From a virus (taxonomy: Duplodnaviria > Heunggongvirae > Uroviricota > Caudoviricetes), in IMG/VR virus record IMGVR_UViG_2713896776_000006: DNA of 35,721 nucleotides. One strand, given 5' to 3'. The translations under genes and the position numbers were made by a program. This document shows, piece by piece, positions 3,144 through 34,359 of the stretch (positions are counted from its first letter, which is position 1; each line of letters starts with the position of its first letter). The notes beneath the pieces were generated by a model. That model had not been told where the DNA came from. It did not search any database and saw only the letters and a program-made list of their open reading frames with translations.

Positions 3144-3368
3144 ATGCATACAGTTTCTGAAAATCAGTGCGGTAAATACGCATTACTGCTGCAACAGGCC
3201 AGAACCGAAGCACAGGCCGACGCAGCGACGCGCTTTTCTTCTCATCTTGACGCCATGATTCGCCACATCACAAAGGCGGAGTTATCCCGCGTGGAGATAG
3301 TCGAGCTGCTCAGTCAGGAGTCGGAAAAATTTCACAATATCGGATTGTCTCGCGGGGAGGTGCTTTGA
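3144..3368 (+). CDS. Early hypothetical protein (P2 orf80-like)
   Basis: ORF in early operon; start chosen at the ATG preceded by GGAGAAA. The six-frame track begins at 3111; start is uncertain. Confidence 0.45.
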
Positions 3369-3894: not shown

Positions 3895-4166
3895 GTATTC
3901 GTATTGAAATTGGCGAACGTTATGTCGTTACCAGTGACAGCTTTCAGTTTATTCTCCACGAGAAAAAGAGAGCTGAAAGCGGTAAAAACGCCGGTCAGGA
4001 ATGGCTGGCGGTGGTTGGTTATTACCCGAAATTAAGCCAGCTTGTTTCCGGCCTGATGCATCACGATATTCTGACCGGAAGCGCAAAGTCTTTTGCTGAT
4101 TTAAACGCGCAGGTTGAGCAACTCAGCAAGCGTTGTTCAGAGGCTTTTGGCTCATATGGCCGTTAA
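3891..4166 (+). CDS. Early hypothetical protein (P2 orf83-like)
   Basis: 91-aa ORF, GGAGAA SD; overlaps start of A as in P2. Confidence 0.5.
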   Translation: MSIRIEIGERYVVTSDSFQFILHEKKRAESGKNAGQEWLAVVGYYPKLSQLVSGLMHHDILTGSAKSFADLNAQVEQLSKRCSEAFGSYGR

Positions 4167-6432
4167 AGCCTCCGGGCGTTTTGTCCCTCCGTCAGCATTT
4201 GCCGCAGGCACCGGTGAGACGTTTACCGGTGCTTATGCATGGAACGCGCCACGCGAGGCCGTCGGGCGCGAAAGACCCCTTACACGTGACGAGATGCGTC
4301 AGGTGCAAGGTGTTTTATCCACGATTAATCGCCTGCCTTACTTTTTGCGCTCGCTGTTTACTTCACGCTATGACTACATCCGGCGCAATAAAAGCCCGGT
4401 GCACGGGTTTTATTTCCTCACATCCACTTTTCAGCGCCGTTTATGGCCGCGTATTGAGCGCGTGAATCAGCGCCATGAAATGAACACCGACGCGTCGTTG
4501 CTGTTTCTGGCAGAGCGTGACCATTATGCGCGTCTGCCGGGGATGAATGACAAGGAGCTGAAAAAGTTTGCCGCCCGTATCTCATCGCAGCTTTTCATGA
4601 TGTATGAGGAACTCTGCGATGCATGGGTTGATGCACATGGCGAGAAAGAATCGCTGTTTACAGATGAGGCGCAGGCGCATCTGTATGGTCATGTTGCTGG
4701 CGCTGCACGTGCTTTCAATATTTCCCCTCTCTACTGGAAAAAATACCGTAAAGGACAGATGACCACGAGGCAGGCATATTCTGCCATTGCCCGTCTGTTT
4801 AACGATGAGTGGTGGACTCATCAGCTTAAAGGCCAGCGTATGCGCTGGCATGAGGCGTTACTGATTGCTGTCGGGGAGGTCAATAAAGACCGTTCTCCTT
4901 ATGCCAGTAAACATGCCATTCGTGATGTGCGTGCACGCCGCCAGGCAAATCTGGAATTTCTTAAATCGTGTGACCTCGAAAACAGGGAAACCGGCGAGCG
5001 CATCGACCTTATCAGTAAGGTGATGGGCAGTATTTCTAATCCTGAAATTCGCCGGATGGAGCTGATGAACACCATCGCCGGTATTGAGCGTTACGCCGCC
5101 GCAGAGGGTGATGTGGGGATGTTTATCACTCTGACCGCGCCGTCAAAGTATCACCCGACACGTCAGGTCGGAAAAGGCGAAAGTAAAACCGTCCAGCTAA
5201 ATCACGGCTGGAATGATGAGGCATTTAATCCAAAGGATGCGCAGCGTTATCTCTGCCGCATCTGGAGCCTGATGCGCACGGCATTCAAGGATAATGATTT
5301 ACAGGTCTACGGTTTGCGAGTCGTCGAGCCACACCACGACGGAACGCCGCACTGGCATATGATGCTTTTTTGTAATCCACGCCAGCGTAACCAGATTATC
5401 GAAATCATGCGTCGCTATGCGCTCAAAGAGGATGGTGACGAAAGAGGAGCCGCGCGAAACCGTTTTCAGGCAAAACACCTTAACCGGGGCGGTGCTGCGG
5501 GATATATCGCGAAATACATCTCAAAAAACATCGATGGCTATGCACTGGATGGTCAGCTCGATAATGATACCGGCAGGCCGCTGAAAGACACTGCCGCGGC
5601 TGTTACCGCATGGGCGTCAACGTGGCGCATTCCGCAATTTAAAACGGTTGGCCTGCCGACAATGGGGGCTTACCGTGAACTACGCAAATTGCCTCGCGGC
5701 GTCAGCATTGCTGATGAGTTTGACGAGCGCGTCGAGGCTGCACGCGCCGCTGCAGACAGTGGTGATTTTGCGTTGTATATCAGCGCGCAGGGCGGGGCAA
5801 ATGTCCCGCGCGATTGCCAGACTGTCAGGGTCGCCCGTAGCCCGTCGGATGACGTTAACGAGTACGAGGAAGAAGTCGAGAGAGTGGTCGGCATTTACGC
5901 GCCGCATCTCGGCGCGCGTCATATTCATATCACCAGAACGACGGACTGGCGCATTGTTCCGAAAGTGCCGGTCGTTGAGCCTTTGACTTTAAAAAGCGGC
6001 ATCGCCGCGCCTCGGAGTCCTGTCAATAACTGTGGAAAGCTCACCGGTGGTGATACTTCGTTACCGGCTCCCACACCTTCTGAACACGCCGCAGCAGTGC
6101 TTAATCTGGTTGATGACGGTGTTATCGAATGGAATGACACGGAGGTCGTGAGGGCGCTCAGGGGGGCATTAAAACACGACCTGAGAACACCAAATCGTCA
6201 GCAAAGAAACGGAAGCCCGTTAAAACTACATGAAATTGCACCATCGGCCAGACTGACCCGGTCGGAAAGAATGCAAATTACCCGTATCCGCGTTGACCTT
6301 GCTCAGAACGGTATCAGGCCGCAGCGATGGGAGCTTGAGGCGCTGGCGCGTGGCGCGACCGTAAATTATTACGGGAAATATTTCAATTATCAGGTCGCTG
6401 ATGAGTGGCCTGGATTTTTGTTACCCATTTGA
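4156..6432 (+). CDS. A: Replication initiation protein A (rolling-circle nickase)
   Basis: About 758 aa from the first in-frame ATG (a TTG at 4147 would give 761 aa, the P2 gpA length); position after orf83; large basic replication protein typical of P2 gpA. Start uncertain by about 3 codons. Confidence 0.88.
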   Translation: MAVKASGRFVPPSAFAAGTGETFTGAYAWNAPREAVGRERPLTRDEMRQVQGVLSTINRLPYFLRSLFTSRYDYIRRNKSPVHGFYFLTSTFQRRLWPRIERVNQRHEMNTDASLLFLAERDHYARLPGMNDKELKKFAARISSQLFMMYEELCDAWVDAHGEKESLFTDEAQAHLYGHVAGAARAFNISPLYWKKYRKGQMTTRQAYSAIARLFNDEWWTHQLKGQRMRWHEALLIAVGEVNKDRSPYASKHAIRDVRARRQANLEFLKSCDLENRETGERIDLISKVMGSISNPEIRRMELMNTIAGIERYAAAEGDVGMFITLTAPSKYHPTRQVGKGESKTVQLNHGWNDEAFNPKDAQRYLCRIWSLMRTAFKDNDLQVYGLRVVEPHHDGTPHWHMMLFCNPRQRNQIIEIMRRYALKEDGDERGAARNRFQAKHLNRGGAAGYIAKYISKNIDGYALDGQLDNDTGRPLKDTAAAVTAWASTWRIPQFKTVGLPTMGAYRELRKLPRGVSIADEFDERVEAARAAADSGDFALYISAQGGANVPRDCQTVRVARSPSDDVNEYEEEVERVVGIYAPHLGARHIHITRTTDWRIVPKVPVVEPLTLKSGIAAPRSPVNNCGKLTGGDTSLPAPTPSEHAAAVLNLVDDGVIEWNDTEVVRALRGALKHDLRTPNRQQRNGSPLKLHEIAPSARLTRSERMQITRIRVDLAQNGIRPQRWELEALARGATVNYYGKYFNYQVADEWPGFLLPI

Positions 6433-6690
6433 GTAAAAATGCAGCGTGATTTTATATGCCTTTGAATGGATTATGCGAAGCGCCTCTAAGGCAGATGAGG
6501 AGCAATAGCATGCTGAAGTAGAAGGCTAAATTGTATTGAATCGCTAGCATGTAATTTAAGGCAGCTATTTGATTCGAGTCATAAAAGAGCATCTATTTCG
6601 GCTAATAAAACCATTGCGAGTGACCTTTTGTCGAAGCATAATTCATCTCGAGCGAAGTCTTGCTAGTCTTTCATCGGAATGATGACAGGC

Positions 6691-6723
6691 GCAAAAAAAC
6701 CACCCTGGCAGGTGGTTTTTTTG
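6691..6723. terminator. Bidirectional rho-independent terminator (accacc-ctggca-ggtggt between A-run and T-run)
   Basis: Seen directly: A7 - 6-bp GC-rich stem - 6-nt loop - stem - T7. Lies downstream of A (plus strand) and of the small minus-strand ORF. Confidence 0.6.
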
Positions 6724-6734
6724 TTTGAAGCATA

Positions 6735-6848
6735 CTAAAGAATAATACTTACATGGATATTACTGACGTTTACTGACAAACCACTTGGACTACCATATGG
6801 ATAGCCAAAGAGGGCCAGAACGAGAATGCAGTAATAGCACTTCTTCAT
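6735..6848 (-). CDS. Candidate small protein (37 aa, MKKCYYCILVLALFGYPYGSPSGLSVNVSNIHVSIIL)
   Basis: Not in the ORF track (<60 aa). Found by manual reverse-complement translation: AGGAGG SD 4 nt upstream of ATG, and the ORF ends about 12 nt before the terminator hairpin. Compact promoter-SD-ORF-terminator layout. Function unknown. Confidence 0.25.
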   Translation of the reverse strand: MKKCYYCILVLALFGYPYGSPSGLSVNVSNIHVSIIL

Positions 6849-7420
6849 ATCTCCTCCTGTAAGCAGAGGGCAATTTCCGCCGATATATGCGCTTCTGAGG
6901 CGGAGTTACTATTTAGCGAAGTCTTGCCCTGAAATAATGCTCTGTTTAAACGCAAAGTGATCTGGCATATCACCGAACAGAGAGCCTGAACAACACAACA
7001 TATAGTATGTCGTTGTTTCTGGTTGCATTTTATGTTGTGTAATACTGGTTTTGCATCAAGGATGTTTGAGCTTTTTTTGATATAGCTCAAAGTAAAAAGC
7101 AGGGACTACGGATGATAAGGTATTGAAAGCAATGTAAATTTTTTAAAGTTATTGGTGGCTAAAAAATGCACAGTTTCAATATGGCGGACTTAAATAAGCA
7201 ATTAAAAAAGTCATAAATATCACTAAAATCATGGTGTTACGTTTTTTTTGTGGGAGCTGCGGTGACGCTTAAGTTGATTTGTCATTAAATAAGCCGTGCA
7301 TGCAACAAGTGAATGTTTTTGCATGCGTCGGGGATGCCCGTTCCAGCTGCTCGCGGTCAGAGCTGGTGCGGATCCATAGTATCTATGCAACTGCATTAAA
7401 ACCGCCACATGAAGCGGGCG

Positions 7421-7439
7421 GGCGAGGCGGGGAAAGCAC
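7421..7439. other. Putative cos site (19-nt cohesive-end sequence ggcgaggcggggaaagcac)
   Basis: GC-rich 19-mer matching my recollection of the P2 cohesive end; located between A and Q where P2 cos lies in the prophage map. Recollection only, not verified. Confidence 0.45.
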
Positions 7440-7499
7440 TGCGCGTTAAAGATTTTATTATGGCTATTGACTTGCTTTGTGTTCAGAAATGAACTAACT

Positions 7500-9974
7500 A
7501 TGAAATCCCACTTAATTTATATGATAGGTTTTATAATGGATATTAATTTTACAGAGTTGATTATTAGCAAGCAAACTATTGATTATGCTAAACTAGTTAC
7601 AAATATTTGTTCTGGAAAGGCAATGTTGTTTTTGGGGGCGGGTTTCTCTAAAGAAGCTACGAATATTAATGATACTAATCCTTCTTCTTCAATAGAGCTA
7701 TCTCATATATTATGTGGTCTTTGTTCAATACCTAAAAATGATAATCTACGCTTTTCTTCTGATTATTACTTAGCAAAAAACTCGTCATTAAAATTAATAG
7801 AACTATTAATTTATAATTATTCTATAAAAACAACATCGGAGAACCAAAATATAATCGCATCGCTACCATGGAAACGTTGTTACACAACTAATTATGACCG
7901 ATGTTTTGAGATCGCAGCTGAATCATCCGGTAATAAATTCGAAACTATAGATCTTGAGCATAAAACAAAGGAATATTATAAGCGCAAGAATTTATGTATT
8001 CATCTTAATGGTTCAATTAATAATATTTCTACTGAAACGCTTGATGATTCATTCAAACTTTCTGATTCATCTTATTCAAGCCCTGACTCTTTTACTGACT
8101 CTGAATGGTTCTATTATTTTAAAAGAGATTTAGATAGGTGTGGCGCGATCGTTTTTATCGGTTATTCAATGTATGATATTGAAATAAAAAAAATCCTTTC
8201 TACCTTACCTCAATTAAAAGAGAAAACATTTTTTGTAACTAGTCTCAATCCTGATATCGAATTAGAATTTACTCTAGAAAAATTCGGTACCGTTTTGCCT
8301 ATAGGTTTGAGTGGTTTTGCCAATAGAATAAGAGATAATATTACTTCAGTATCAGAAGAGCAGGAGTATAAGCTACAGTCACTTTTTCTTCATGATATAA
8401 CCAATGAATCAAGTTCTATTAGAGATGAAGAGGTTGAAAAAATGTTGATGTATGGTGATTTGGATGATCATCATATTGATAATTTTATACTTGGTAATAC
8501 TAAGGTACCGTTTTTAGTAAAAAGAAGTGAAATTGATAAAGCTGTTTCATTAATTGAACAATCAAAAAATGTAATTATTTATTCGGCGCTTGGAAACGGA
8601 AAAACCATCTTATTGAAAGAGCTAAGGAGTGTTTTATCCGTCGGTGGTTATGATGTTTATACAGTGGCCGATATAGATGGTGATTTTATATCAGATATTG
8701 ACTATATAGCACAATCATCCATGAAAAATATCATATTACTTGATGGGTATGAGAAGAATCTTGAATTAATGGAACATGTGGGCAGAGCTGCTTACGAAAA
8801 TGTACTAATACTTGCTACTGCCCGTGTTGCAGATCATGAATATCACAGAGATGATTTGGAGCGCATAAAATTCAAATATTCTGAAATAAATATTGATATG
8901 TTAGATGAGGTAGAGTTAAAAGATTTTTCAAAAATAATAGATAACTTAGGTCTTTGGGGAGATAATGCAGGGCTTAGTGTAGAGCAAAAGGTAAGATATT
9001 TAGCTAATGAGAATAACAGTCAATTCTCAATTGCATTGCTTACTCTTTTGGAGTCGCCGCAAATAAAAAATAAGATAAGTGATTTAATTACCGGGATTAA
9101 AAAGAGTAAGAGTCATGAAAACACAATTATTTCAATTTGTCTTTGTCAAATACTTGGCATTGAAACGAATCGAGGGATTATATCTGATCTTGCAGGCAAT
9201 GATTTGATTTATGATCCGGATTTTACTAATAACAGTGCGTTTAAGGCAATATTTAATTTCCATGGCGGTAGGATCATTAACGGGTCTAGTTTATTTTGCA
9301 TACATCTAATAAAAAATAATTTCACTCCTACTGTTATTATAGAGCGAATGCTTACTATTGCATCAAGGTTTAATCAATTAAACTCTAAGGATTATGAACA
9401 GGATAGAATATTTAAAGCTATGCTCAGGTTTTCTTTTGTTGAGCAGCTGCTTCCTGAAAGTATGAAAATATCAACGCTACAACGATATTATGAAAAGTTA
9501 AAAATTGAAGTTCCATGGCTAAATTCAAACCCACACTTCTGGTTGCAATACGCAATGTGTTTTATTGCTTACAAAAATTACCCAAAAGCACAACAGTATA
9601 TTGACCAGGCATATGCGTTAGCTGAAAAGCGAGCAAAATATCACACGAACAATATTGATACCCAGCAAGCAAAAATATATTTGCTTTCAAGCGAAAAGAT
9701 ACCAGATGGTAATATTGTATTCTCTAATTTCGAAAAGGCAAACAACCTTCTTAGTAATTTGGATGTGGATATTTACTCTCTGAGGCAGTTTTCGAGATAT
9801 AAAGATTTTCATTTGTCAAATTACAATAAGCTATCGAAGAGTAATAAAGTTAAATATATGGAAGCATGTAAACAGTCTTTAAATAAAATATCTGAATATG
9901 AAGGAGATGGCGGCGTAAGTCAATCATATGTTGCTAAAGTGATTGAAATATTAAAGCATATTACAAAGGTATAA
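7500..9974 (+). CDS. Candidate anti-phage defence protein: N-terminal SIR2-like (SIR2_2-type) NADase domain fused to a P-loop NTPase and a C-terminal helical domain
   Basis: Long uninterrupted ORF (824 aa from the first ATG; track ORF starts at 7467 with TTG). SIR2-family motifs in canonical order: LFLGAGFS, CYTTNYD, IHLNGS, VFIGYSMYD. Downstream a Walker A-like SALGNGKT, Walker B-like NIILLDGYE, then ILATAR. Strongly AT-rich relative to flanking phage genes. Located at the P2 tin/old variable locus between cos and Q. Confidence 0.7.
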   Translation: MKSHLIYMIGFIMDINFTELIISKQTIDYAKLVTNICSGKAMLFLGAGFSKEATNINDTNPSSSIELSHILCGLCSIPKNDNLRFSSDYYLAKNSSLKLIELLIYNYSIKTTSENQNIIASLPWKRCYTTNYDRCFEIAAESSGNKFETIDLEHKTKEYYKRKNLCIHLNGSINNISTETLDDSFKLSDSSYSSPDSFTDSEWFYYFKRDLDRCGAIVFIGYSMYDIEIKKILSTLPQLKEKTFFVTSLNPDIELEFTLEKFGTVLPIGLSGFANRIRDNITSVSEEQEYKLQSLFLHDITNESSSIRDEEVEKMLMYGDLDDHHIDNFILGNTKVPFLVKRSEIDKAVSLIEQSKNVIIYSALGNGKTILLKELRSVLSVGGYDVYTVADIDGDFISDIDYIAQSSMKNIILLDGYEKNLELMEHVGRAAYENVLILATARVADHEYHRDDLERIKFKYSEINIDMLDEVELKDFSKIIDNLGLWGDNAGLSVEQKVRYLANENNSQFSIALLTLLESPQIKNKISDLITGIKKSKSHENTIISICLCQILGIETNRGIISDLAGNDLIYDPDFTNNSAFKAIFNFHGGRIINGSSLFCIHLIKNNFTPTVIIERMLTIASRFNQLNSKDYEQDRIFKAMLRFSFVEQLLPESMKISTLQRYYEKLKIEVPWLNSNPHFWLQYAMCFIAYKNYPKAQQYIDQAYALAEKRAKYHTNNIDTQQAKIYLLSSEKIPDGNIVFSNFEKANNLLSNLDVDIYSLRQFSRYKDFHLSNYNKLSKSNKVKYMEACKQSLNKISEYEGDGGVSQSYVAKVIEILKHITKV

Positions 9975-10007: not shown

Positions 10008-11042
10008 CTAATAATCCTCATCGCTAAGTTTGTAATTTTTAAAACATATTACTGATTCTCCTACCCAATGATTGACCTCACTGAGCCGGTTTTGGAGTGG
10101 AGTAAGTTCATTTCGCACGAATACTTTTGCCACTTTCTCAATATCACCCAGTGACCCGACATTCTCCGGCTTGCCGCCCATCAACTGAAAGGGGACGCGG
10201 TGTGCGTCCAGCAGGTCTGCGGCGCTGGCTTTTTTGATATTAAAAAAATCGTCCTTCGTTGCCACTTCACTGAGCGGGATAATTTTGATGCCGTCGGCTT
10301 TCCCCTGTGGGGCATAGAGAAACAGATTTTTAAAGTTGTTGCGGCCTTTCGACTTGACCATGTTTTCGCGAAGCATTTCGATATCGTTGCGATCCTGCAC
10401 GGCATCGGTGACGTACATGATGTATCCGGCATGAGCGCCATTTTCGTAATACTTTCGGCGGAACAGCGTGGCCGACTCATTCAGCCAGGCAGAATTAAGG
10501 GCGCTGAGATATTCCGGCAGGCCGTACAGCTCCTGATTAATATCCGGCTCCAGCAGGTGAAACACGGAGCCGGGCGTGAAGGCTGTCGGCTCGTTGAAGG
10601 ACGGCACCCACCAGTAAACATCCTCTTCCACACCACGGCGGGTATATTTTGCCGGTGAGGTTTCCAGTCTGATGACCTTACCGGTGGTGCTGTAACGCTT
10701 TTCCAGAAACGCATTACCGAACACCAGAAAATCCAGTACAAAGCGGCTGAAATCCTGCTGAGAAAGCCACGGATGCGGGATAAATGTTGAGGCCAGAATA
10801 TTACGTTTGACGTAAATCGGTGAGCTGTGATGCACGGCAGCACGCAGGCTTTTTGCCAGACCGGTAAAGCTGACCGGTGGCTCATACCATCTGCCGTTAC
10901 TGATGCACTCGACGTAATCCAGAATGTCACGGCGGTCGAGTACCGGCACCGGCTCACCAAAGGTGAATGCCTCCATTTTCGGGGCGCTGGCGGTCATTGT
11001 TTTTGCCGCAGGTCGCGGTGTTTTCCCTTTTTTCTTGCTCAT
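10008..11042 (-). CDS. Q: Portal protein
   Basis: 344-aa ORF, first gene of leftward late operon, stop/start overlap with P; same length as P2 gpQ. Confidence 0.93.
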   Translation of the reverse strand: MSKKKGKTPRPAAKTMTASAPKMEAFTFGEPVPVLDRRDILDYVECISNGRWYEPPVSFTGLAKSLRAAVHHSSPIYVKRNILASTFIPHPWLSQQDFSRFVLDFLVFGNAFLEKRYSTTGKVIRLETSPAKYTRRGVEEDVYWWVPSFNEPTAFTPGSVFHLLEPDINQELYGLPEYLSALNSAWLNESATLFRRKYYENGAHAGYIMYVTDAVQDRNDIEMLRENMVKSKGRNNFKNLFLYAPQGKADGIKIIPLSEVATKDDFFNIKKASAADLLDAHRVPFQLMGGKPENVGSLGDIEKVAKVFVRNELTPLQNRLSEVNHWVGESVICFKNYKLSDEDY

Positions 11043-21680: not shown

Positions 21681-23975
21681 ATGAGCACGAAATTTAAAAC
21701 CGTTATCACTACTGCCGGAGCCGCGAAGCTGGCAGCCGCCACTGTTCCCGGCGGGAAAAAAGTAAACCTGTCTGCAATGGCCGTGGGTGACGGTAATGGC
21801 AAATTGCCGGTGCCGGATGCCGGTCAGACGAAACTGGTGCATGAGGTCTGGCGTCACGCTCTGAATAAAGTCAGCGTGGATAACAAGAATAAAAACTATA
21901 TCGTGGCTGAACTGGTTGTACCGCCCGAAGTGGGCGGCTTCTGGATGCGTGAGCTTGGCCTGTACGATGATGCGGGAACGCTAATTGCCGTGGCGAACAT
22001 GGCCGAAAGTTATAAACCCGCTCTTGCCGAAGGCTCAGGGCGTTCGCAGACCTGCCGCATGGTCATCATCGTCAGCAGTGTGGCCTCAGTGGAGCTGACC
22101 ATTGACACCACAACGGTGATGGCGACGCAGGATTACGTTGATGACAAAATTGCAGAGCATGAACAGTCACGACGTCACCCGGACGCCTCGCTGACCGCAA
22201 AAGGTTTTACTCAGTTAAGCAGTGCGACCAACAGCACGTCTGAAACACTGGCCGCAACGCCGAAAGCGGTAAAGGCCGCCTATGACCTTGCTAACGGGAA
22301 ATATACTGCGCAGGATGCCACCACGGCGCGAAAAGGCCTTGTTCAGCTCAGTAGTGCGACCAACAGCACGTCTGAAACGCTCGCCGCAACGCCGAAAGCG
22401 GTAAAGGCCGCCTATGACCTTGCTAACGGGAAATACACTGCACAGGACGCCACCACCGCGCGAAAAGGTCTTGTCCAGCTCAGTAGCGCCACCAACAGCG
22501 ATTCTGAAACGCTTGCGGCAACACCAAAGGCGGTTAAGACAGCGTATGACCTTGCTAACGGGAAATACACTGCACAGGATGCCACCACGGCGCGAAAAGG
22601 TCTTGTCCAGCTCAGTAGCGCCACCAACAGTGATTCTGAAACCCTCGCGGCAACGCCAAAAGCGGTGAAGTCTGCCTATGACAATGCTGAAAAACGTCTT
22701 CAGAAAGATCAGAACGGTGCGGATATTCCGGGAAAGGATACCTTCACGAAAAATATCGGTGCCTGTCGTGCTTATAGCGGCGCTTTGAGCACTGAAGCCG
22801 GAAACTGGACAACCGCTCAGTTTATTGAATGGCTGGATTCCCGTGGTGCATTTAATCATCCGTACTGGATGTGCAAAGGCTCCTGGTCATATGCAAATAA
22901 CAAAATCATTACGGATACCGGATGTGGTGATATCCACCTGGCTGGTTGTGTCGTCGAAGTCATGGGAACAAAATCTGCAATCACTATTCGAGTGACCACG
23001 CCGACAACATCAAGCGGTGGCGGTACAACCAGCGCGCAATTCACTTACATTAATCATGGGGACGGCTACTCCCCCGGCTGGCGTCGTGACTGGAATCGTC
23101 AGGGCGACGCAATGACCGGAACGATTAATCAGGATGGCGGAAGCCAGAATGCCTATATGTCTACGGCCTTATGTTCAGGCACCAGAGGCGGCAAAAAATA
23201 TCTCAGAAAGTTTCGTGGTGGAGAAGGAGACACTATCTGGCATGAAACAGTGCAGGGCGGGGTAATTCGCTGGGCGACAGGAAACTATGACGATCAGGAA
23301 GAATTATCACTCAGCTCCGCTTATGGTCTCCGTTCTAGAGGTGAAATTACATCACTCAGTGCTAATGGTCTGCGCATTGCTTATGGCAATTATGGATTCT
23401 TTATCAGGAATGATGGCGGCAGCACATATTTAATGCTGACGGCCTCTGGCGATAAATTTGGGACATGGAACGGTTTAAGACCGCTGACTATCAATAACGC
23501 TAATGGCGGAGTGTCAATGGGGCATGGCCTGAGTGTTACTGGTGATATTGCCTCAAGTACCAAAGTACGCGCCGGTAGCGGGAAAAAGTTCACGGTCAGC
23601 AGCAGTAATACATCCACGAAGGAAGCCGCATTCAATTTGTGGGGAAACTCAAGTCGTCCGGTGGTGGCTGAATTAGGTGATGATGCAGGCTGGCATTTTT
23701 ACAGTCAGAGAAATACAGATAACAGCATCACTTTTGCTGTTAACGGTCAGGTATCACCATCTAACTATAGTAATTTTGATTCCCGTTATGTACGCGATAT
23801 CCGGCTTGGGACTCGAGTTGTCCAGACCATGCAGAAAGGGGTGATGTATGAGAAAGCAGGGCACGTAATTACCGGGCTTGGTATTGTCGGTGAAGTCGAT
23901 GGTGATGACCCCGCAGTATTCAGACCAATACAAAAATACATCAATGGCACATGGTATAACGTCGCACAGGTGTAA
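21681..23975 (+). CDS. H: Tail fibre protein (longer than P2 gpH; contains internal tandem repeats)
   Basis: 764-aa ORF between I and G; conserved N-terminus, repeated SSATNS..TLAATPKAVK..YDLANGKY motif, divergent C-terminal (receptor-binding) half. Confidence 0.9.
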   Translation: MSTKFKTVITTAGAAKLAAATVPGGKKVNLSAMAVGDGNGKLPVPDAGQTKLVHEVWRHALNKVSVDNKNKNYIVAELVVPPEVGGFWMRELGLYDDAGTLIAVANMAESYKPALAEGSGRSQTCRMVIIVSSVASVELTIDTTTVMATQDYVDDKIAEHEQSRRHPDASLTAKGFTQLSSATNSTSETLAATPKAVKAAYDLANGKYTAQDATTARKGLVQLSSATNSTSETLAATPKAVKAAYDLANGKYTAQDATTARKGLVQLSSATNSDSETLAATPKAVKTAYDLANGKYTAQDATTARKGLVQLSSATNSDSETLAATPKAVKSAYDNAEKRLQKDQNGADIPGKDTFTKNIGACRAYSGALSTEAGNWTTAQFIEWLDSRGAFNHPYWMCKGSWSYANNKIITDTGCGDIHLAGCVVEVMGTKSAITIRVTTPTTSSGGGTTSAQFTYINHGDGYSPGWRRDWNRQGDAMTGTINQDGGSQNAYMSTALCSGTRGGKKYLRKFRGGEGDTIWHETVQGGVIRWATGNYDDQEELSLSSAYGLRSRGEITSLSANGLRIAYGNYGFFIRNDGGSTYLMLTASGDKFGTWNGLRPLTINNANGGVSMGHGLSVTGDIASSTKVRAGSGKKFTVSSSNTSTKEAAFNLWGNSSRPVVAELGDDAGWHFYSQRNTDNSITFAVNGQVSPSNYSNFDSRYVRDIRLGTRVVQTMQKGVMYEKAGHVITGLGIVGEVDGDDPAVFRPIQKYINGTWYNVAQV
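22200..22690 (+). repeat. About 3.7 tandem copies of a 132-nt (44-aa) repeat inside H
   Basis: Repeat unit KG(F/L)(T/V)QLSSATNS(T/D)SETLAATPKAVKAAYDLANGKYTAQDATTAR seen three times in full plus a partial fourth copy; period measured as 132 nt (22203 to 22335). Confidence 0.85.
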
Positions 23976-24506: not shown

Positions 24507-24752
24507 GTTGTATGAGCTCTGGTGTGAGCTTACATATCTATGGCACAGAGTAAAGACTAATCTGACAGTCCGCTCTGTGCCAGAAGCGGACCTTCCAACA
24601 AGCTATATAGGAGCTAAAAAATCCTCATTGATCCAGGCTTTGAGCTTGTAAATTACCATTCCTAAAAGTTACATAATAAGTTCTATAATGTGTAGCATGG
24701 ATGATTAATATAGTTGTTTTAAGTTAAGTCCCTACAGGATATGGAGTTTTTT

Positions 24753-25205
24753 ATGTTACAACAACTGGCCTGTGAGTTTTTTATTGAGTTTTCACGATAT
24801 GAATATTGCCTTAAGGCATGTGGGATTTTAATCAATGGAGGCCATTTAAAAGCTGACTGGAATGGATATTCCGATCAGGTGCGTGACGTTATCGAAAACC
24901 CGTCTACCCCTAAACTTAATGAAGCGATTCATTACTTCGAAGAGCATCCCCCTAAAAAACAGATTTACGGTGAAAAAGGGATCATGTGGTCGGAAAAACT
25001 ACCGAGTTCCCGGCACCGGGCTGAACTAATTTTACTGCTGGTCTGTCGAGTAAGAAACAATCTCTTTCACGGCGGAAAATTCAATGGTAATTGGTTTGAA
25101 CCGGAACGCAGTGAGCAGTTAATCCGGCACGCCCTCACCATCCTACGGGCCTGTGCGGAGAAACACGCCGGAGTGAAAGATGCCTATGAGAACAAACACT
25201 TCTGA
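24753..25205 (+). CDS. Cargo hypothetical protein with HEPN-like Rx4-6H motif (RVRNNLFHGG)
   Basis: 150 aa from the ATG preceded by GGAG with 6-nt spacer (track ORF starts 4 codons earlier). AT-rich. Only a single short motif supports the HEPN idea. Confidence 0.5.
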   Translation: MLQQLACEFFIEFSRYEYCLKACGILINGGHLKADWNGYSDQVRDVIENPSTPKLNEAIHYFEEHPPKKQIYGEKGIMWSEKLPSSRHRAELILLLVCRVRNNLFHGGKFNGNWFEPERSEQLIRHALTILRACAEKHAGVKDAYENKHF

Positions 25206-25311
25206 GACGGGTCACTGCTACAACCCAGCCCATAACGGCAACTCTGACAGAATCATTAAAGGTTACTAGTACATTAAAAGAAATCGCTAAAGCAGTCGGA
25301 TTTATGTCTAT

Positions 25312-25357
25312 GGGGAGCAGGTCAAGACGAAGCTAGCCCTGCTCCCCGTGATTTTTA
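25312..25357. terminator. Bidirectional terminator-like hairpin between convergent cargo genes
   Basis: 10-bp stem ggggagcagg/cctgctcccc with 16-nt loop, followed by gtgattttta. Confidence 0.5.
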
Positions 25358-25383
25358 TATACCCACCACGGAGGCATTAGGCC

Positions 25384-26109
25384 CTATTGCCTTTTTTTCA
25401 GGTCATCAAGAATGCTCTGCTTTTCGGCAACCAACATTTTGTACACATCATCATCACTTTTAAGATTAAATTTGAAATGCGATCGTCCCACAGATATGCC
25501 GGATACGCCTTCAATCCACATATCCTTGGCTATTTTTTCATCTGAGTCATCTAGGGCATTTTCAGAAATCTTATCAAGGGATGAGAGGATATCCCCATGC
25601 AACTGTAACAATTTTTTATATGTGATTGATGGCGAATTTTCCTTCCTCCGAGAGATCAAGCTTAGATCATTAATCTGGGCGTTAACGCGATCAATAATAC
25701 CAAAAACTCCTAAGCGAGCCTCAACTGACTTGCGCTCAGATTTATGTTTTGCGCCTGTTTGAAATAACAGCTCGGAGTTAATATACGAACCTAGATCATG
25801 TGCATCTTTCACCATGGTTCTAACACCCTCACTAAAGTGTGGGTATCCGATAACTAGCCCCCCCAGTAGTGGGATGATCTTACCGTAAGCGGTGATTTTC
25901 GCGATGATTGAGCCTTCAGAGAACTCAACTGTTATCTCTACCTCACTTCCAATAAAAAAAGGTATTCGGCTCTTCGCAAAGGCAGTTATTTGCTTCTCAA
26001 TCTCATTGATTCTTAGTTTCTTATCTTGAGGGGTCGCATTTTTTAACCACTCAGGATTAACATGAACATACGATTGAGAAATGATATTCCCTGATACATA
26101 GTTTGCCAT
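25384..26109 (-). CDS. Cargo hypothetical protein (241 aa), unknown function
   Basis: ORF with GGAG SD 5 nt upstream of ATG; AT-rich; no motif I can assign. Confidence 0.6.
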   Translation of the reverse strand: MANYVSGNIISQSYVHVNPEWLKNATPQDKKLRINEIEKQITAFAKSRIPFFIGSEVEITVEFSEGSIIAKITAYGKIIPLLGGLVIGYPHFSEGVRTMVKDAHDLGSYINSELLFQTGAKHKSERKSVEARLGVFGIIDRVNAQINDLSLISRRKENSPSITYKKLLQLHGDILSSLDKISENALDDSDEKIAKDMWIEGVSGISVGRSHFKFNLKSDDDVYKMLVAEKQSILDDLKKRQ

Positions 26110-26292
26110 TCTTACTCCATTAACAAGTTACTTTAGCCACCTAGTAATACCCCTAATTTCAGGAGATATCGATATCATTCGCAACGATTGACCTGTTCCC
26201 AGTTGATTGATACACGACATTGTGAGCAAGATCTATGGCAACTCAAGTACGAACGTCTGCTGATCGCTCAGAGCGGACGGCCTTCGTGGAAG

Positions 26293-27102
26293 TTAGTCTT
26301 GTTGTGGTGGCTCTTTCCAGCGCCATTGCAAGACATTCTCATCGCTGAGAATAAACAGTCCTGACCAAATTGCCGTCCAAAACTGGACATTCAGACACCA
26401 TGGGCGTGTCATAAACCAGCGTAACGGTTTTGCTTCAAACAGATGAATACCTTTTCGCGATGGTGAATATAACGGGGGGCGTCCCACTAACGGCAGACAA
26501 AAGCCCCATTTCCAATATTCAGCAATACGCCTTCGGGCAAATTCAATTGCATTACAGTTCCAGATGATACCCCAACGCCGTTTCCATGTATCATTGAGAC
26601 ACCAGTTTTGCATTAGCGAATATTTGGGCGAATTGTCAATAGATATACTTTCACCAGTCATTAAATTTATCGTGCAATATTTTAACTGGTACTGTTCAAC
26701 CGTAAATGCGAATCCATCATCTAGAATAAGTACATCAAGTGTAGGAATATTTGAAAGCGTTAATATTATCGGTGAGTTATTTACATCATGAATGCATAGT
26801 GTTTCTTGGTAGCGTAAGCCACTGCCAATGGCTTCAAAAACAAGTTCAACTTGTTGCAGTGGTTCCTCTTTGCTTCTGAAAGCAATACGTGAACAACGAG
26901 GTTCTTTATCTGTCAACTGAGCAAATCGTAGACTGTACTCCAAATAATTCCCTAAGGAATGCCAGCTCGCCCCTAGCCTGTGTCTCACTGCCCAGCGCTC
27001 ATGTGAGAGTTGATAAGTTTTTATCAGCATTATCTGGGTAAGAGTAGACCAGCATTTCTTCACTACTGTAACAATTGCACCAAAAGGAACAGGAAGTGAC
27101 AT
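26293..27102 (-). CDS. Cargo hypothetical protein (269 aa, Trp-rich), unknown function
   Basis: ORF upstream of and co-oriented with the 241-aa gene (183-bp gap); weak GGGG SD; AT-rich; start uncertain (alternative internal Met). Confidence 0.5.
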   Translation of the reverse strand: MSLPVPFGAIVTVVKKCWSTLTQIMLIKTYQLSHERWAVRHRLGASWHSLGNYLEYSLRFAQLTDKEPRCSRIAFRSKEEPLQQVELVFEAIGSGLRYQETLCIHDVNNSPIILTLSNIPTLDVLILDDGFAFTVEQYQLKYCTINLMTGESISIDNSPKYSLMQNWCLNDTWKRRWGIIWNCNAIEFARRRIAEYWKWGFCLPLVGRPPLYSPSRKGIHLFEAKPLRWFMTRPWCLNVQFWTAIWSGLFILSDENVLQWRWKEPPQQD

Positions 27103-34188: not shown

Positions 34189-34215
34189 AAAAAATAAGCC
34201 CGTGTAAGGGAGATT
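34189..34215. repeat. attR core: 27-bp direct repeat identical to 478..504
   Basis: Exact identity with the left copy; overlaps the 3' terminator of the sRNA gene on the minus strand. Confidence 0.8.
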
Positions 34216-34275
34216 ACACAGGCTAAGGAGGTGGTTCCTGGTACAGCTAGCATTTTATGGGTTATGTTTTTCAGC
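34189..34275 (-). ncRNA. cyaR: CyaR (RyeE) Hfq-dependent sRNA
   Basis: Reverse complement reads gctgaaaaacataacccataaaatgctagctgtaccaggaaccacctccttagcctgtgtaatctcccttacacgggcttatttttt, which matches my recollection of E. coli CyaR, including the terminal hairpin and U-tract. It lies between yegQ and P2-like prophage DNA as in E. coli K-12. Recollection only, not alignment-verified. Confidence 0.6.
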
Positions 34276-34359
34276 GAAACGGATGATAACCTTAATAAAT
34301 GCAGCTGTATGTGATCGGTTTCTAAGAATTTTCCATCCGGGAAAAATAATCGAAATTAA

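Follow-up and report, generated by a model that had tools for sequence, protein, structure and literature searches.

A 13-bp direct repeat of a P2-like prophage as the probable pairing sites of a convergent sRNA/mRNA module resembling type I toxin-antitoxin systems

The viral record IMGVR_UViG_2713896776_000006 (Caudoviricetes), a P2-like prophage whose 35,721 nucleotides are called the window here, contains a 13-bp direct repeat whose two copies are probably the interaction sites of a convergent small RNA (sRNA)/mRNA pair in a type I toxin-antitoxin (TA)-like module. The repeat, AGCGAAGTCTTGC, has exactly two copies in the window, 6651-6663 and 6915-6927, which lie on the same strand with 264 bp between their starts. 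The two copies bracket an intrinsic terminator (arms 6692-6704 and 6711-6723) and an open reading frame (ORF) of 37 amino acids (6848..6735, - strand), as described in the initial annotation. Because the copies would be transcribed in opposite directions, the direct repeat of the DNA would become complementarity between an sRNA and an mRNA.

Comparison with relatives resolved the module into two predicted, convergent transcription units with a shared bidirectional terminator. An sRNA of ~73 nt would be initiated from TTGCGA-17-CATAAT at ~6650 (+ strand), carry copy 1 as its first 13-17 nt and end at the terminator at 6692-6723. An mRNA of ~330 nt would start from an nrdDG-like promoter at ~7019 (- strand), contain copy 2 in its 5' untranslated region (UTR) and end at the same terminator from the other side. 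The pairing and its polarity, the coding nature of the ORF, the hairpins of the sRNA and the UTR and the homology of the promoter are all read from this comparison at the sequence level.

Conservation, co-variation and strand polarity of the repeat

From the window alone the 13-bp repeat is not significant, since 16% of dinucleotide-preserving shuffles of the whole window yielded one or more exact direct repeats of 13 nt with their copies within 300 bp of each other (mean 0.22); when only the 1034-bp intergenic stretch was shuffled, such a repeat appeared in 0.5%. Nearly all other short-range 13-mer repeats of the window are accounted for by long internal direct repeats with a 132-bp period (22221-22618, + strand) inside a 764-aa ORF (21681..23975) that, judged from P2 gene order, is probably the tail-fibre gene. 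The significance of the repeat comes from its relatives, where the sequence data point to function. Both copies were kept down to 73% overall identity and held fixed positions relative to promoter, terminator and ORF in every relative, and in P2-like relatives they were invariant against a background identity of 87-94%. In most relatives the repeat is 14-18 bp long with a spacing of 263-270 bp; in copy 2 of the window the first G is lost, with a T at 6914. Neither an empty site nor a single copy occurred in any relative, and all 150 matches in Escherichia coli covered at least 80% of the module. A chance repeat without function, to which the shuffles of the whole window would lend some credit, is refuted by these comparative data, as both copies are conserved and co-vary. 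Its probability is negligible, and coincidence, the first of the origins considered initially, can be set aside.

Co-variation was followed in 80 instances of the module (49 unique), collected by pattern scans of genome, viral and metagenome contigs and from loci found by BLAST. Three core alleles were present, GAGCGAAGTCTTGCC, GAGCAAAGCCTTACC and GAGCGAAGTCTTGTCAC, of which GAGCAAAGCCTTACC has three positions altered in both copies. For 18 distinct variants each sRNA was joined to its own mRNA leader and the pairs of a 17-pair intermolecular helix were counted. In this helix 96% of the cells were paired and four pairs had changes on both sides, against only 35-48% paired cells in slid controls. 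The positions with double changes also showed the wobble intermediates, in series from U·A through U·G to C·G, from G·C through G·U to A·U, and from C·G through U·G to U·A.

The differences present in one copy only define a polarity. With copy 1 read as RNA of the + strand and copy 2 as RNA of the - strand, 269 of 270 core cells pair, whereas in the opposite polarity 259 of 270 do and all 10 one-sided changes become A·C. All ten therefore keep a G·U pair in the former polarity only, which argues for pairing as RNA, since a protein-binding or other DNA-level function would not yield such a bias. Judged from sequence, these are the patterns expected of an RNA duplex and not of a pair of DNA operators, a recombination scar or gene conversion. 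In one relative, a contig of an Enterobacter metagenome-assembled genome (L012), the copies lie 1187 bp apart and are still identical 15-mers, so that the pairing appears independent of distance. Here, at 4573-5800 of the contig, the terminator is duplicated and a 217-aa gene (4767..5420, - strand), encoding a predicted membrane protein, lies between the sRNA half and the peptide half.

Two identical, conserved and co-varying sites 264 bp apart could also serve one protein, as paired operators or in DNA looping, and so control the ORF or the terminator region. The single polarity of the G·U pairs speaks against this. So do the lack of a palindrome in the site and of a regulator gene in the module, the variable spacing (up to the 1187 bp of the Enterobacter contig) and the position of copy 1 exactly at the start of a promoter-to-terminator unit. 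We consider a pair of DNA sites very unlikely. The paired regulatory sites proposed in the initial annotation were thus correct in spirit, as a regulatory pairing, with the qualification that the sites appear to act as RNA and not as DNA.

Direct repeats around a small unit are likewise the expected trace of an insertion, and the copies might be a target-site duplication or recombination scar left by a cassette of terminator and ORF. The mobile unit common to P2-like phages and plasmids, however, measures ~600 bp (~6545 to ~7145) and reaches ~100 bp to the left of copy 1 and ~220 bp to the right of copy 2. Both copies thus lie within this unit and not at its edges, and a target-site duplication is excluded. 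Relatives with a single copy or an empty site were not found, and the repeats are still present and co-vary at a divergence (down to ~73% identity or less) over which decay of a neutral scar would be expected. A scar is extremely improbable, and the footprint of a mini-cassette that had been suggested initially found no support.

The predicted antisense RNA, the peptide mRNA and the peptide

Upstream of copy 1, a consensus scan identified a predicted sigma-70 promoter (6614-6642, + strand) with the -35 element TTGCGA at 6614-6619, a 17-nt spacer and the -10 element CATAAT at 6637-6642. TTGC(G) and GCATAAT were kept in plasmid and other relatives, with a fully diverged spacer of 17-18 nt. GCATAAT was also present in L012, L013 and L014, the three family members among the loci obtained with a terminator-only pattern. 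Further upstream, at 6569-6582 (+ strand) and ~75 bp before the predicted sRNA start, a conserved element TTGATTCGAGTCAT matches the FNR consensus TTGATnnnnATCAA at 8/10 positions and is kept as TTGAT-N4-GTCAT in Klebsiella plasmid variants.

From folding and comparison, the predicted antisense sRNA (6650-6724, + strand; ~73-75 nt) consists of a 5' seed, a stem-loop and the terminator. The unit folds with -31.6 kcal/mol (z = -4.67) and the seed is left free or weakly paired. Copy 1 (6651-6663) forms this seed, 8-9 nt past the -10 hexamer at the predicted transcription start. Stem-loop 1 (6666-6690, + strand) was predicted in nearly all of the 21 unique sRNA variants despite unrelated stems, for example GUCU.UCAUC/GAUGA.AGGC, GUUCGGGUCU/AGGUCUGAAC and GUCACC/GGUGGC, and the terminator hairpin in 21 of 21. 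The latter (6692-6723, both strands) has arms at 6692-6704 and 6711-6723 with 13/13 complementary positions, a loop CTGGCA (6705-6710, + strand) and flanks formed by an A-run and a T-run. In BLAST-found relatives with 73% overall identity it was invariant, including the loop.

No Rfam family reached the gathering score in the module, be it in the window or in six relatives. The matches below threshold (RNAI, Phe leader) rest on the terminator hairpin. In L010 and L015, from a plasmid of Klebsiella sp. WOUb02, the hairpin AAAAAACCACCCTGGCAGGTGGTTT is duplicated beside a ColE1-type RNAI/ori-like sequence, which explains the weak RNAI match on the module terminator. Homology of the module to RNAI or the Phe leader was therefore rejected, a near-identical hairpin adjoining the RNAI region of this ColE1-like plasmid.

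The predicted peptide mRNA (6691-7019, - strand; ~330 nt with a 171-nt 5' UTR) was delimited by homology to the mapped nrdDG promoter at its start and by the shared terminator at its end. The whole mRNA folds with z = -2.76. A 5'-terminal hairpin (6989-7017, - strand) lies 1-2 nt past the predicted start in every variant, built from differing sequences (GAAACAAC.., GCCCC..GGGGC, GACCCA..), so that in all variants the predicted start sits at the base of the hairpin. Two palindromes resembling NrdR boxes, at 7040-7025 and 7008-6993, match what we take to be the NrdR consensus at 12/16 and 14/16 positions but coincide with this 5' hairpin.

The remaining leader contains further conserved structures. 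Hairpin 1 (6940-6982, - strand) has co-varying stems, with changes on both sides in 5/7 outer-stem and 2/5 inner-stem pairs (7/12 together), and keeps the loop motif UGCCAG (6967-6962), which is complementary to the terminator loop CUGGCA of the sRNA. A contact between the 3' terminator hairpins of the two RNAs, which are fully complementary and do not vary in sequence, is also possible. Copy 2 (6915-6927, - strand), read in the mRNA as GCAAGACUUCGCU, is the predicted sRNA target site, 67-79 nt upstream of the AUG (6848). It is followed by hairpin 2 (6876-6904, - strand; UCCGCC/GGCGGA), in which 3/6 pairs change on both sides, as in the L003 group with CCACC/GGUGG. Finally, the strong Shine-Dalgarno (SD) sequence AGGAGG (6858-6853) and an upstream anti-SD sequence CCCUCUG (6870-6864) form a small hairpin (6853-6870, - strand). 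Folding of 35 variants predicted an SD that is paired for the most part, with a mean unpaired probability of 0.23, and compensatory SD/anti-SD variants exist, such as CCCCG...CGGGAGG in L013.

The seed duplex was predicted to comprise 13-17 bp, with energies from -25.6 kcal/mol in the window down to -33.3 kcal/mol in other variants. Within the whole window, 6915-6927 was the best target of the seed, the runner-up reaching -20.9 kcal/mol. The leader of the host nrdD gene was considered as a second target and rejected, its best duplex having only -13.3 kcal/mol.

The 37-aa ORF (6735-6848, - strand; MKKCYYCILVLALFGYPYGSPSGLSVNVSNIHVSIIL), taken from the ORF list and supported by conservation, encodes a small hydrophobic peptide and putative toxin. 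All relatives have an ORF of 37-39 aa in this position, with 12-18 nt between its end and the terminator. Ratios of nonsynonymous to synonymous substitution rates (dN/dS) of 0.14-0.3 indicate, at the level of sequence, that it is coding and under purifying selection, and the grand average of hydropathy is 0.5-0.9. The peptides follow the pattern M-[KND]-[KR]-x4-C, a hydrophobic stretch, G-x-[QP]-S-G-[WL], and then alternating polar and hydrophobic residues. No match was obtained in Pfam (E <= 1), NCBIfam (E <= 10), PHROGs or PADLOC. An exhaustive search of 1.8 billion representatives gave only 8 matches with E <= 0.001, the strongest belonging to the same small-ORF family and the weakest including two ~500-aa proteins with partial alignment; all database names for the peptide are 'hypothetical'. 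Three other ORFs, 6569..6682 (+ strand), 6909..7028 (- strand) and 6845..7090 (- strand), were rejected as genes, since no such ORF is conserved among the variants; 6569..6682 moreover runs across the spacer of the sRNA promoter, which differs by one nucleotide in length between variants (17-18 nt).

A promoter of nrdDG type on a mobile unit

A weak BLAST match pointed to the region directly upstream of nrdD in the E. coli chromosome. In the alignment with the upstream region of K-12 nrdD, homology extends from ~-130 to the start site, and downstream of +1 the module is unrelated to the nrdD leader. The sequence comparison identifies the putative promoter of the peptide gene as a copy of the host nrdDG promoter. 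The published FNR probe of nrdDG, TACTTTGAGCTACATCAAAAAAAGCTCAAACATCCTTGATGCAAAGCACTATAT (TACTTTGAGCTACATCAAAAAAAGCTCAAACATCCTTGATGCAAAG), contains FNR sites at -64.5 and -33.5, and the matching region on the - strand of the window reads TACTTTGAGCTATATCAAAAAAAGCTCAAACATCCTTGATGCAAAACCAGTATT (TACTTTGAGCTATATCAAAAAAAGCTCAAACATCCTTGATGCAAAA). The homologue of the -33.5 site, TTGATGCAAAACCA, lies at 7046-7059 (- strand; FNR site 1) and that of the -64.5 site, TTGAGCTATATCAA, with 9/10 matches to the FNR consensus given above, at 7077-7090 (- strand; FNR site 2). In all variants the two boxes are 31 bp apart as in nrdDG, with conserved half-sites and variable spacers. The -10 hexamer TAAAAT (7027-7032, - strand) aligns with that of nrdDG and predicts a start at G7019 or A7020; every variant has TA(A/G)AAT here, and its distance from FNR site 1 is constant. 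Two FNR boxes at this spacing, site 1 at -33.5 and a matching -10 together give the putative promoter the hallmarks of the nrdDG type. A distal part (7091-7145, - strand), seen in the alignment with the nrdD upstream regions of K-12, K. pneumoniae and Salmonella, continues to ~-125 and ends at AAAAAATTTACAT. The homology between phages and plasmids also ends at ~7145, the right edge of the mobile module.

The copies of the promoter match their hosts. Over the 59-nt FNR core the window shares 54/59 positions with E. coli nrdD, against 43 with K. pneumoniae and 46 with Salmonella, whereas the core of a K. variicola plasmid is identical to that of K. pneumoniae nrdD (59/59, against 46 for E. coli). 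This points to repeated exchange with the resident nrdD promoter or to independent captures. Plasmid variants retain NrdR box 1, CACTATATATAG, an element of the published NrdR probe; at this position the window reads CCAGTATTACAC and the box is not conserved.

Conservation with another isolate of P2, with a phage of Salmonella and with prophages of E. coli covers the sequence between the end of gene A and ~7200. The core (6560-7150) was found in 150 of 5426 complete E. coli genomes (~3%), always essentially complete, and RefSeq lists no feature under the core in these 150 genomes, which include E. coli E24377A, W/KO11FL and an ST131 strain. On plasmids, the core (6569-7141 of the window) was present in 434 records at ~73% identity, 396 of them from Klebsiella and 351 conjugative, and the genes neighbouring it were unrelated from plasmid to plasmid; KPNIH10 and KPNIH27 are among the Klebsiella carriers. 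On the K. pneumoniae plasmid pGN-2 (L006) an AgrB antitoxin RNA (4129-4216, - strand; RF02891, 45.1 bits) lies ~550 bp from the module. Since AgrB is part of a dinQ-like type I system, two RNA-controlled loci of toxin type are clustered on this plasmid. The metagenome contig Ga0268256_1001162 (L070) carries two copies of the module, at 3354 and 6276 and hence ~2.9 kb apart, with slightly different seeds, …CTTGTCAG and …CTTGCCCG.

In the window, the module follows a 772-aa ORF (4114..6432) identified as the replication endonuclease gpA from the annotation of close relatives. At 7421-7439 (+ strand) the window exactly matches GGCGAGGCGGGGAAAGCAC, which we take to be the 19-mer of P2 cos, and 2128 of 5426 E. 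coli genomes match the ~60 nt around it (7385-7445). An ORF of 835 aa (7467..9974, + strand) separates cos from the portal gene (10008..11042, - strand; its homologue is annotated as portal protein). The encoded protein has an N-terminal SIR2-like domain (PF13289; ThsA-like SIR2 in PADLOC), a STAND NTPase and TPR repeats and is likely a defence gene of Avs or SIR2-STAND type in the P2 hotspot. In P2-like phages the cos-proximal region from gpA to gpQ has been described as a hotspot for genes of accessory function and defence, and the module, between gpA and gpQ and near cos, lies in that hotspot.

Two other regions of the window were recorded. Three ORFs at 24741-27102 (154 aa, + strand; 241 aa, - strand; 269 aa, - strand) apparently represent the Z/fun accessory locus by P2 gene order; none of the three had a PADLOC match. 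The CyaR/RyeE sRNA gene at 34192-34277 (- strand; RF00112, 100.7 bits) lies downstream of the last phage-like ORFs and therefore probably marks the chromosome flanking the prophage.

Relation to known systems, proposed mechanism and significance

In the par locus of pAD1, two promoters converge on one bidirectional terminator that both transcripts share, and direct repeats in the DNA are read from opposite sides. The predicted module shares this plan with par (Fst/RNA I-RNA II) of the Enterococcus faecalis plasmid and its Firmicute relatives, including the intrinsic nature of the terminator, the complementarity of the terminator stem-loops of the two RNAs, which can interact, and a second region of RNA-RNA complementarity formed by the oppositely transcribed repeats. 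Sequestration of the SD by intramolecular structure and location on plasmids and phages are common to both as well. Unlike par with its DRa and DRb, the module has one long repeat, and this lies 67-79 nt upstream of the AUG, whereas the par repeats overlap the translation initiation region. The peptide of the module bears no relation to Fst/Ldr: it is without the charged C-terminal tail, and Pfam and NCBIfam gave no match. The host is enterobacterial and the toxin promoter is a copy of that of nrdDG. The sequence comparison thus describes a par(pAD1)-like architecture in a module that is not a member of the par/Fst family.

Antitoxin RNAs that pair far upstream of the ribosome-binding site (RBS) are known from E. 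coli (tisB/IstR-1, zorO/OrzO, shoB/OhsC, dinQ/AgrB). As in these systems, a short stretch (13-21 nt) at the 5' end of the sRNA would pair within the leader of the toxin mRNA, at a distance from the RBS, the SD is predicted to be sequestered, and the toxin promoter would be controlled by a regulator that responds to stress or conditions, with an antitoxin promoter that looks constitutive. Those loci, however, are divergent and have no shared terminator, their regulator is LexA where known and not FNR/NrdR, no Rfam model matches the module, and the peptides are unrelated. Covariance models of the four systems, of timP(ryfA)/TimR, of hok/sok and of others gave no match in the module. With timP/TimR (ryfA) of Salmonella and E. 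coli the module shares a peptide of similar size (TimP has 38 aa) with a signal-like hydrophobic N-terminal part, and an sRNA whose 5' end pairs with the mRNA leader. The timP locus differs in being divergent and part of the chromosomal core, with neither a shared terminator nor a promoter of nrdDG type, and a search with RF00126 (ryfA) gave no match in the window up to E <= 1. The nrdDG promoter of E. coli itself is homologous from ~-130 to +1, with both FNR sites, the 31-bp spacing and the -10, but drives ribonucleotide reductase genes in place of a 37-aa ORF on a mobile element. Searches of open-access papers and bioRxiv for the module and for its peptide, seed and terminator strings, and those on type I systems of P2-like phages and Klebsiella plasmids and on type I toxins regulated by FNR, found nothing on this module. 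The 'novel type I' system of pOXA-48 was rejected as a description of this module, as it corresponds to DqlB/AgrB, a different family.

In the mechanism we propose by analogy, both RNAs would be made and pairing of the sRNA would repress translation of the peptide, through a standby-site or structural effect on the sequestered SD and/or through cleavage by RNase III. A direct switch, in which the sRNA would free UUGCCCU (6873-6868) to close the anti-SD/SD hairpin, was dropped. When the target was kept open in partition-function folds of 35 variants, the accessibility of the SD showed no consistent change; a long-range helix of the GGGCAA/UUGCCC type seemed to co-vary by eye, and register shifts blocked a clean count. 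As folding did not support this switch, standby-site binding or processing as in tisB/IstR-1 and zorO/OrzO, or RNase III, serves as the working analogy. The peptide would be a toxin that harms the membrane once the sRNA is lost or exceeded in number. Its mRNA would be induced anaerobically via FNR, and plasmid variants might be de-repressed via NrdR. The module may stabilise its replicon or aid phage exclusion in the cos-proximal hotspot of P2.

The locus presents the two general marks of a type I TA system, a gene for a small (<60 aa) hydrophobic protein and, as predicted from sequence, an adjacent gene for an antisense RNA that pairs with the toxin mRNA. Provided that the antisense pair is correctly identified, we lean towards a toxin-antitoxin function. 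The same pair of RNAs might also control a non-toxic product, a regulated small membrane protein ('moron') of benefit in anaerobiosis or at low deoxynucleoside triphosphate levels, for which the sRNA would set a threshold. The promoter, copied from nrdDG as a physiological anaerobic gene, would suit such a role, and so would the likeness to TimP in size and N-terminal hydrophobic segment, TimP permitting growth at native levels. On the other side, the module moves as a selfish 600-bp unit among phages and conjugative plasmids in unrelated contexts, it stands beside type I AgrB on pGN-2 and within the P2 defence hotspot, and a sequestered SD with a dedicated antisense RNA is typical of toxic products. 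A non-toxic role appears rather unlikely to us.

Several points count against an antisense-regulated toxin. The seed is represented by only three or four haplotypes, and the three double changes by which the two main alleles differ could stem from one lineage split. The duplex of the window is the weakest of the family (13 bp and one wobble). Two of the pattern scans demanded an exact -10 and terminator, so that the invariance of these elements in those loci is given by construction and more divergent members were not sampled. The possible loop-loop contact between hairpin 1 and the sRNA terminator has no support from co-variation, as the loops are invariant. Blocking the target in silico left the accessibility of the SD unchanged (0.23 versus 0.26), and with a target 67-79 nt from the AUG simple folding does not explain repression. 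The hydrophobic segment of the peptide is N-terminal and signal-like, whereas most type I toxins have a central helix, and the peptide may be non-toxic at native levels. Finally, all transcript ends are predictions, and we infer expression, toxicity and repression from analogy. With these points weighed, the convergent sRNA/mRNA pair remains the probable explanation of the repeat.

More speculatively, the module might belong to an unrecognised family of mobile, sRNA-gated membrane toxins, whose promoter is repeatedly re-copied from the host nrdDG, as the E. coli and Klebsiella copies suggest, and senses the anaerobiosis (FNR) and deoxynucleoside triphosphate (NrdR) signals of that host. In the P2 hotspot and on resistance and virulence plasmids of Klebsiella, such toxins would serve addiction or abortive infection specifically in the gut. 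We put this forward tentatively. We know of no other such system with a promoter of FNR/NrdR type, of which this module would be the first.

In summary, a trivial-looking repeat marks an unannotated regulatory module that is present in ~3% of complete E. coli genomes and on hundreds of conjugative Klebsiella plasmids, and in which a mobile element has captured a host-matched promoter. If confirmed, it would constitute a new enterobacterial family of type I TA systems with the par-type architecture so far described in Firmicutes. Surveys of the P2 'defence hotspot' based on proteins would miss this module, and, if the proposed function is true, it would bear on the persistence of plasmids in the anaerobic gut and on the non-protein-coding cargo of the hotspot.

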